This document shows, piece after piece, positions 8,850 through 53,601 of a stretch of 64,000 nucleotides of DNA. The stretch is from Sandaracinaceae bacterium. GTDB lineage: Bacteria > Myxococcota_A > Polyangia > Polyangiales > Sandaracinaceae. The position numbers and the translations under genes were made by a program. The DNA is taken from the NCBI GenBank assembly GCA_044220955.1, contig JBGAQA010000024.1, positions 1 through 64,000 of the forward strand, read 5' to 3'. The notes beneath the pieces are model-generated. The model saw only the letters and a list, made by a program, of their open reading frames with translations, made no database searches and was not told the origin of the DNA. How positions within the stretch are numbered: position 1 is the first letter of the stretch; each line of letters opens with the position of its first letter.

Positions 8850-8920
8850 TCGGGGATCGTCTAATGGCAGGACAACAGTTTCTGGCACTGTTTATCTAGG
8901 TTCGACTCCTAGTCCCCGAA
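8850..8920 (+). tRNA. tRNA-Gln(CTG)
   Basis: Acceptor TCGGGGA/TCCCCGA, anticodon arm ACAGT-TTCTGGC-ACTGT, T arm CTAGG-TTCGACT-CCTAG. No encoded CCA. Confidence 0.93.
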
Positions 8921-8954
8921 TTCGCTTTCTTCCTGCCCCCTTGCTCCGTTCCTT

Positions 8955-9026
8955 GGCCCCATCGTCTAGTGGTTAGGACATCGGCCTCTCACGCCGGTAA
9001 CCGGGGTTCAAGTCCCCGTGGGGTCG
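8955..9026 (+). tRNA. tRNA-Glu(CTC)
   Basis: Acceptor GGCCCCA/TGGGGTC, anticodon arm TCGGC-CTCTCAC-GCCGG, T arm CGGGG-TTCAAGT-CCCCG. Confidence 0.95.
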
Positions 9027-9031
9027 TCCGC

Positions 9032-13817: not shown

Positions 13818-14193
13818 GGGGGTGTCACGGTATCGACGAGGGCAGTGAAACGTCGAGCTGCGTGCCGCCGGACTCGGAGACGGCGTCAAAAACATCCGGG
13901 AACCTGTAAGTGCGAACGACAGCACCTACGCTGTTGCGGCCTGAGTAAGGCTTAGCGACGGCCGTCGAAGGGAAGAGCCCGCCAGTGCTCTCCTGGAGGC
14001 GTAATCGAACTGGCTGGCTCCTCCCGTGCGACTGCGGGAAGGGGCGAGAATCCGGTCTTCATACCGGGCCAGTCGCTGGCGGTTCAGGTAGCCCGTCCGT
14101 GGGGGACCTGCATCGCGACGAAAAACGCGGACTACGCACGTAGTGGCTCGACCGGATCGCCTTCGGACCCGGGTTCGACTCCCGGCGCCTCCA
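13818..14193 (+). ncRNA. ssrA: tmRNA, tag peptide ANDSTYAVAA (13912..13944)
   Basis: 5' GGGGGTGTCACGGTATCGAC, 3' CCCGGGTTCGACTCCCGGCGCCTCCA with G3-U wobble acceptor, and the resume codon GCG followed by an ANDSTYAVAA-TGA tag. Confidence 0.96.
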
Positions 14194-51575: not shown

Positions 51576-53087
<1,512 letters not shown>

Positions 53088-53136: not shown

Positions 53137-53219
53137 TGCGGAAGAGAGGACTTGAACCTCCACGGGGGTTACCCGCCAGATCCTTAGTCTGGTGCGTCTG
53201 CCAATTCCGCCACTTCCGC
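53137..53219 (-). tRNA. tRNA-Leu with anticodon AAG
   Basis: GCGGAAG-TG-GCG GAATTGGCAGA CGC-A-CCAGA CTAAGGA TCTGG-long variable arm-GGAGG TTCAAGT CCTCT-CTTCCGC-A. Loop reads C32 U33 A34 A35 G36 G37 A38, discriminator A73. Confidence 0.93.
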
Positions 53220-53277: not shown

Positions 53278-53601
53278 TCAGCGCCCGACGGCGCGGGCCA
53301 GCAGGCGCTCGTAGCGATCCTGGAAGCGTCCGAGCCGAGCCTGCTCGCGCAGCGTCAGCAGGCCGTCCGAGTAGGCGCGCTCCTGATACTGCTGGATGCG
53401 CAGCATCTGCTGGTTCAGCACCGCCGCCTCGCGTGCGTCGATCCGACCGGCCGCGATCGCCTGCTGGTATCGGGTCTCCTGGTCCCGCTGTCGCTGCTCG
53501 GTCGTCGTCTGCCCCGTGGGCGTCACGACCGTCTGAGCCGATGCCATGGTGGGCAGGGCGAGCGCGAGGGTGAAGCCGAGGATGCCGAGCGTACGGGACA
53601 T
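53278..53601 (-). CDS. Small secreted helical protein
   Basis: GGAGG RBS, signal peptide ASA-Q, two xGx(I/L)xxRExxxL repeats. Confidence 0.65.
   Translation of the reverse strand: MSRTLGILGFTLALALPTMASAQTVVTPTGQTTTEQRQRDQETRYQQAIAAGRIDAREAAVLNQQMLRIQQYQERAYSDGLLTLREQARLGRFQDRYERLLARAVGR

Follow-up and report, generated by a model that had tools for sequence, protein, structure and literature searches.

The window, a stretch of 64,000 nucleotides from one contig of a Sandaracinaceae genome (G000; assembly of 7.5 Mb, 72.5% GC, 87.9% complete), carries on its minus strand a class II tRNA-Leu gene with the anticodon AAG. The features of the locus are listed below, where the two protein-coding neighbours are given as context only:

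53137..53219, minus strand: tRNA-Leu(AAG) gene, class II, with A73; CCA is not encoded
53181..53187, minus strand: anticodon loop C32 U33 A34 A35 G36 G37 A38, with A34 at 53185
53261-53234, minus strand: sigma-70-like promoter candidate TTGACT-16-TACAGT, then a GC-rich stretch (a consensus match only)
53132-53099, minus strand: terminator-like hairpin of 15 pairs with a U-rich tail, between the tRNA gene and the convergent gene
51576..53087, plus strand: gene for an FHA plus sigma-54 activator protein, convergent neighbour
53278..53601, minus strand: ORF of 107 aa, upstream neighbour, whose start resembles a signal peptide; Pfam gives no match

The identity of the gene is agreed upon by ARAGORN, whose minus-strand call for 53137-53219 is tRNA-Leu(aag), by a match to Rfam RF00005 covering the full model at 54.5 bits (gathering score 29, E 5.6e-10), and by direct reading of the loop, so that the initial annotation of an intact tRNA-Leu with an AAG anticodon stands. 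The features by which a class II tRNA-Leu is recognized, G18G19, G37, A73 and a long variable arm, are all present in the cloverleaf. Taken on its own, the folding free energy is not significant (z −1.31), as is usual for tRNAs. The promoter-like sequence upstream and the 15-bp hairpin downstream that had been described were both recovered above their shuffle means, the promoter candidate matching the consensus at 9 of 12 bases (0.1 as the shuffle mean), the hairpin having 15 pairs (0.2 as the shuffle mean). CTC, which had been named as the dominant leucine codon, indeed makes up 66.8% of the leucine codons in 46 genes of the window. The further RNA genes of the window, at 8850-9029 and 13818-14193, are an ordinary tRNA-Gln(CTG), tRNA-Glu(CTC) and tmRNA (tag ANDSTYAVAA), and a tRNA-Sec(TCA) gene is found elsewhere in the host genome (G000:C232:30469-30563). 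One protein of the window groups with clusters in which Myxococcota is the most frequent phylum.

The tRNA-Leu(AAG) gene is real and conserved. Of 40 relatives, 7 from 3 genera carry a copy with 100% identity, in many others it gives the top match, and the 20 best-matching loci all read AAG. Since identical copies occur in 7 other genomes, the gene is not an assembly error, and position 34, for which the initial annotation had allowed for a different base in close relatives, is A in all 20 of these loci.

Distribution and origin of the AAG anticodon

Among 201 genomes of the order (rows counted by hand), 100 carry AAG, 89 carry GAG and 12 yielded neither, with AAG in 99 of 200 when the unpublished genome G115 is left out; AAG predominates in 18 of the 22 sampled families. 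Outside the order, 1 of the 3 genomes sampled from the class has it, as do 17 of 113 from the rest of the phylum, and its occurrence in the phylum beyond the order includes all 13 genomes of family f29 and all 3 of family f44. An RpoB tree made with FastTree only, which covers 56 of the 60 searched genomes with several rows partial and G000 absent, contains an AAG branch of 40 rows, 37 of them AAG (support 99), and the sister of this branch consists of 12 rows, 11 of them GAG. The anticodon labels require 5 changes on the tree vs. 14.8 in shuffles. On this topology one large branch of the order, spanning 18 of the 22 sampled families, had A34 as its ancestral state, and the GAG rows within that branch (one genus of f3, and f13) are read as returns to G34 in at least two lineages. 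The backbone of the f13 GAG gene is not the same, and this gene may have come in as a replacement. The AAG genes of G187 and G281 are read as separate gains, and AAG was also gained in other parts of the phylum.

The AAG and GAG genes of f3 have a common backbone and common neighbours, and the same is seen when G281 is compared with G302 and G319. Judged by locus and backbone, Leu(AAG) is the orthologue of Leu(GAG) and took its place, as the initial annotation had proposed; the second part of that proposal, an origin independent of the lactic acid bacteria, is supported by the same backbone and synteny comparison together with the RpoB tree. Descent from Leu(UAG), a candidate prompted by similar anticodon stems, was ruled out by backbone and synteny. 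What does not survive from the earlier reading is the idea that the replacement is peculiar to this organism, as it appears ancestral and widespread across the families of the order, and the loss of Leu(UAG) discussed below had been overlooked.

The anticodon is also less rare than the initial annotation stated. A pattern scan of GTDB gave at least 120 loci, for 118 of which the ARAGORN call is Leu(AAG), and the 80 titles listed include streptococci, lactobacilli, Akkermansiaceae, Cloacimonadota, Planctomycetota and Synergistales as well as Clostridia, Actinomarina, Micavibrio, Mycoplasmopsis and Lujinxingiaceae. Since many phyla are represented among these listed matches, the anticodon is recurrent across bacteria, contrary to the initial annotation, in which it was mainly a feature of lactic-acid Firmicutes. 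In recent papers, Leu(AAG) is placed almost only in Bacilli, plus Mycoplasma and Prochlorococcus (PMC13249217), and Firmicutes are named for it (PMC8007984). The Leu(AAG) of Mycoplasma and Prochlorococcus (PMC13249217) and of the phyla in the GTDB scan has the same anticodon as the tRNA described here, and the loops in the scan are the same as well, partly because the search pattern required that loop. Our literature search found no paper on Leu(AAG) in myxobacteria, although the Rafels-Ybern 2018/2019 surveys and Fig. S1C-D of PMC13249217 may list it.

The anticodon loop and TadA

Five bases differ between the GAG and AAG genes of f3, with C31 U32 G34 U38 G39 in the former vs. A31 C32 A34 A38 U39 in the latter, and the AAG tRNA of G187 has retained C31-G39 and acquired C32 and A38. 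When 63 distinct leucine tRNAs are compared, the loop is YU-AAG-GA in all 31 distinct AAG tRNAs, and A38 occurs in 0 of 15 GAG tRNAs. This comparison shows that the ancestral Leu(GAG) changed to AAG at the base of the large branch of the order, with the switch accompanied by U32>C, U38>A and, usually, C31-G39>A31-U39. The loop of the window tRNA, CU-AAG-GA, fits YUAMGRA, the consensus for S. pyogenes TadA, and position 35 is its sole difference from the loop of the same cell's Arg(ACG) (CU-ACG-GA). The C32-A38 pair is described as contacting TadA, and the anticodon loop as remodelling against helix alpha-5 of the enzyme (review, PMC11802342). The change at 32 and 38 can also be explained without TadA, as ribosomal tuning for A or I34 vs. 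G34 (PMC7293025).

One TadA is encoded in G000, beyond the window (G000:C222:83758-84198), and scores 155.2 bits against NF008113 (cut-off 150). The HAE and PCxxC motifs are intact in 69 of 69 aligned myxobacterial proteins, and the 68 genomes searched contain one copy in 66 cases, two equal copies in G007 and none that was found in G036. The check on TadA sequence and copy number suggested in the initial annotation thus yields a single host copy with intact catalytic motifs, and with TadA present in G000 and in 67 of the 68 genomes the case of a TadA-less bacterium with A34 tRNAs is not matched. Duplication or transfer of TadA as a route to AAG was rejected on the single copy in 66 of 68 genomes and on a tree in which streptococcal TadA does not cluster with the myxobacterial proteins, this being a quick and poorly resolved tree with 10 label changes.

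Position 147 of TadA, which belongs to the C-terminal helix and follows the conserved FF, is I or V in 27 of 38 AAG genomes (I 24, V 3, L 10, R 1) and in 0 of 31 GAG genomes (L 22, R 9). The residue tracks the anticodon switch in f3, G187 and G308 and does not do so in G281 or f44; it is L in G000. This column is the best of about 160, picked after the fact among related genomes and confounded by their kinship, and we treat it as a lead only.

The tadA gene of most relatives is surrounded by tRNA genes, in a cluster of the type Ser/Arg(ACG)/Ser/Ser. That of G000 has no tRNA within 1.5 kb, and the Ser/Arg(ACG)/Ser/Ser cluster is found on C268 instead. In f44 (G240:C60:117000-119950; G261:C36) the Leu(AAG) gene itself lies about 2 kb or less from tadA and the Ser/Arg(ACG) cluster, and in G007 the tadA/tRNA cluster occurs twice in near-identical form (G007:C1:1-2100 and 599500-601500), once at the contig start, which is possibly an assembly repeat.

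The leucine tRNA set and the codon CUA

The leucine tRNAs of G000 (87.9% complete) are AAG, CAG, CAA and TAA only, and no Leu(GAG) was found in this genome. The complete genome G023 gives 57 Rfam tRNA matches. All were placed, 3 of them only as second copies (two) or as a weak match (one), and no Leu(TAG) is among them. The A34 tRNAs of G023 are Arg(ACG) and Leu(AAG) only, and no other ANN tRNA in G000 or G023 is credible. The genome-wide view that the initial annotation had recommended therefore shows no core Leu(GAG) in either genome, with Arg(ACG) as the sole other A34 tRNA.

The loss of Leu(UAG) in the host family (f1) is seen as its absence from the assemblies. Among 31 genomes of the family that are at least 80% complete, AAG is found in 29 and TAG in 1, with no match in 2 (AAG 28 of 30 and TAG 1 of 30 without G115). 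A DNA search with a relative's TAG gene gave no match in 5 of 5 genomes of the host family and none in G119, G184, G146 and G112 of f9, and it recovered the TAG gene of G028 that our strict tRNA pattern had missed. Because the pattern misses genes, among them those of G028 and the GAG genes of tRNA arrays, absence of Leu(UAG) is claimed only for the host family and these four f9 genomes. Extra motif matches occurred in G006, G191, G049 and G186; ARAGORN, applied to those of the first two genomes, did not call them tRNAs. Most other AAG families of the order keep Leu(UAG).

Besides the host family, Leu(UAG) also went undetected in a group made up of the four f9 genomes and four more from f9, and their AAG loop has U32 instead of C32; G140, on the same branch, has C32 in its AAG loop and keeps UAG. 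G119 is a single contig with 62% GC and 3% CTA, and no TAG gene was found in it. The sole TAG gene in the host family (G017:C118:1019-1103) closely resembles the TAA gene of the same genome (G017:C39), which is still kept. G017 has a lower GC content (61%), and CTA makes up 2% of its CUN codons vs. 0.1-0.6% in four other members of the family. Leu(UAG) of G017 was apparently re-made from Leu(UAA) by duplication and anticodon shift, and contamination of the bin is another possible source.

Leu(GAG) is part of large, divergent tRNA arrays in G023 (G023:C1:9952400-9955800), G011 (G011:C263) and G119 (G119:C1:3454000-3459000), and no array bearing Leu(GAG) was seen in G000. Such arrays are probably accessory and often silent. 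The Leu(GAG) of the G023 array is atypical, and the same array holds a short 'Leu(CAG)' without the long variable arm (L266 2403-2479). Arg(GCG), an anticodon outside the enumerated core set of G023, is present in two of the three arrays, and for Gln(CTG) and Lys(CTT), G023:C1 also carries a second gene each, divergent in sequence (L272 64-216).

The codon counts that follow rest on a crude custom gene caller. In G000 (208,009 leucine codons in 5687 genes) CTC accounts for 65.1%, CTG for 31.4%, CTT for 1.0%, CTA for 0.36% and UUA for 0.01%. The 739 CTA codons are spread over 673 of the 5687 called genes and occur in AspRS-, SecA- and LeuRS-like genes (named by eye). CTA still codes for leucine, as 71% of 28 conserved paralogue sites show vs. 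79% for CTC and CTG, and reassignment of CUA is ruled out by this alignment of CTA with leucine. Relative to other NNA codons, CTA stands at 0.07-0.26 in four host-family genomes without UAG and at 0.25-0.81 in three f9 genomes without UAG, at 0.10-0.55 in six genomes with AAG and TAG, and at 0.19-0.37 in four with GAG and TAG. With these small samples and crude gene calls there is no clear extra depletion of CUA as a signature of UAG loss, and codon use shows no clear difference between AAG and GAG genomes in 20-120 kb samples of 18 genomes.

Decoding by Leu(AAG) and comparison with known systems

We favor, with a probability of roughly 0.8, the reading that Leu(GAG) became Leu(AAG) with remodelling of its loop, that TadA edits the tRNA, and that the IAG form reads CUC and CUU and, following the loss of Leu(UAG), CUA. 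Editing of A34 to inosine by TadA is itself quite probable; the single homodimeric enzyme would deaminate A34 on both Arg(ACG) and Leu(AAG), and Leu(IAG) would then read CUC and CUU. Leu(UAG) was subsequently lost in the host family, a loss that would be tolerated because CUA makes up only about 0.1-0.6% of CUN codons at 70-73% GC. With Leu(UAG) lost, IAG also has to read the rare CUA codon, presumably through an I:A pair. The A34 tRNA appears to be the only one left for CUU, CUC and CUA in the host family and the sole plausible reader of CUA; the Leu(GAG) genes in the accessory arrays of G023, G011 and G119 count against this reading. From the gene sequences we infer expression of the tRNA, formation of I34 and reading of CUA by IAG.

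An alternative that is compatible with editing, and that we regard as unlikely, is that IAG reads CUC and CUU and that Leu(CAG), with C:A pairing or a modified C34, is the main reader of CUA. Bacterial tRNAs whose anticodon stem has only 4 bp have been suggested to form C:A pairs at the third position (PMC13092985), the retention of Arg(UCG) beside Arg(ACG) suggests that I:A reading is weak, and G017 has seemingly re-made a UAG tRNA. Leu(CAG) does not match the superwobble C34 tRNA with its 4-bp stem (PMC13092985), however, since it has a full anticodon stem of 5 pairs in G000, G184, G146 and G112, and I:A pairing is the textbook route.

It seems about as unlikely that A34 is unmodified or partly edited and that CUU, CUC and CUA are read by relaxed two-out-of-three pairing helped by C32-A38. 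B. subtilis is described as reading all four CGN codons with an unedited ACG tRNA and without TadA (PMC10454642), tRNA-ANN genes replace native tRNAs in E. coli (10.64898/2026.05.15.725136), O. oeni is reported to leave two of its four A34 tRNAs unedited, and the Leu(AAG) of S. pyogenes is reportedly not edited by E. coli TadA. Among metatranscriptome contigs from 4 runs, one covers position 34 and has the genomic base A, at a depth of 2.8 and possibly from DNA or precursor; the other contigs at this match are different leucine tRNAs. Against an unedited A34 stand the reported editing of Leu(AAG) in O. oeni, S. pyogenes and S. mutans, the three bacteria compared (with complete editing by TadA in S. 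pyogenes), and the agreement of the loop with the TadA motif in 31 of 31 AAG tRNAs. It would also leave CUC to an A:C mismatch. Without editing, two thirds of leucines would be read through A:C, which is unlikely but possible on the E. coli data, where the codons read by A34 tRNAs mostly end in U and where an orthogonal AAG tRNA, for the most part unedited, gave 4.3% at CUU, 1.5% at CUC and a value below detection at CUA (PMC11066159).

The reading that the locus reflects an error of assembly, a private mutation or a pseudogene, and that a normal Leu(GAG) is simply not captured in a bin that is 87.9% complete and lacks several other tRNAs, has next to no chance of being correct and is, on the sequences compared, already refuted by conservation, given the identical gene in 7 other genomes, AAG in 100 of 201 genomes of the order and the complete genome G023 without a core GAG gene.

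The closest known system to the edited Leu(AAG) that we favor is that of the Lactobacillales, in which conversion of tRNA-Leu(AAG) to IAG by TadA is known from Streptococcus pyogenes, S. mutans and Oenococcus oeni (PMC13249217, 10.1101/2023.09.19.555891). As there, an A34 gene replaces Leu(GAG), the loop CU-AAG-GA has the same 7 nt as in streptococcal records, and one TadA is present per genome. The myxobacterial case differs in its separate origin, in a host of 72.5% GC and in a codon usage with CUC at 65% and CUU at 1% of leucine codons. TadA position 147 differs as well, being Arg in Streptococcus and Lactococcus and mostly Ile in myxobacterial AAG genomes. Inosine at position 34 is reported for the Lactobacillales, whereas we infer it for the myxobacterial tRNA, which is known here from genes. 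Unlike the host family, the Lactobacillales keep Leu(UAG), and reading of CUA by IAG is not required there (PMC13249217). The trait is explained in that source by recoding of UUA in AT-rich genomes that keep Leu(UAG), and the attendant rise of CUU and CUC at the expense of UUA is not seen in G000 (CUU 1.0%, UUA 0.01%). A lineage of 72% GC that has lost UAG is at odds with this model, and in such a lineage one leucine codon would have to be decoded by an I:A pair.

We hold only tentatively, at a little short of an even chance, the combined proposal that one inosine tRNA-Leu is the sole reader of CUU, CUC and CUA in the host family and that several switches between G34 and A34 in the phylum are reversible and coupled to changes in the loop (31-32, 38-39) and in a residue of the TadA C-terminal helix. 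If it is true, the family would use a three-codon strategy like that of eukaryotes or of the Arg box, with I34 on leucine being essential, and the coupled changes would point to how TadA gains or loses a second substrate. The way in which homodimeric TadA came to accept a second tRNA is described as an open question (10.1101/2023.09.19.555891), for which sister genera differing in G34 vs. A34, reversals included, offer natural pairs for comparison, with one residue as a candidate. If TadA has broadened, mRNAs would also be expected to be edited at UAAG sites, as they are in S. pyogenes.

Leu(AAG) resembles bacterial Arg(ACG), which TadA edits to ICG, in that an A34 tRNA serves the U-, C- and A-ending codons and a C34 tRNA the G-ending one. 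The pattern is swapped in G000 and G023, however, where the Leu box is without UAG and the Arg box keeps UCG (G000:C22:102899-102973; also G023:C1) beside ACG and CCG, the reverse of the Leu box; CGA makes up 4.8% of the arginine codons in G000.
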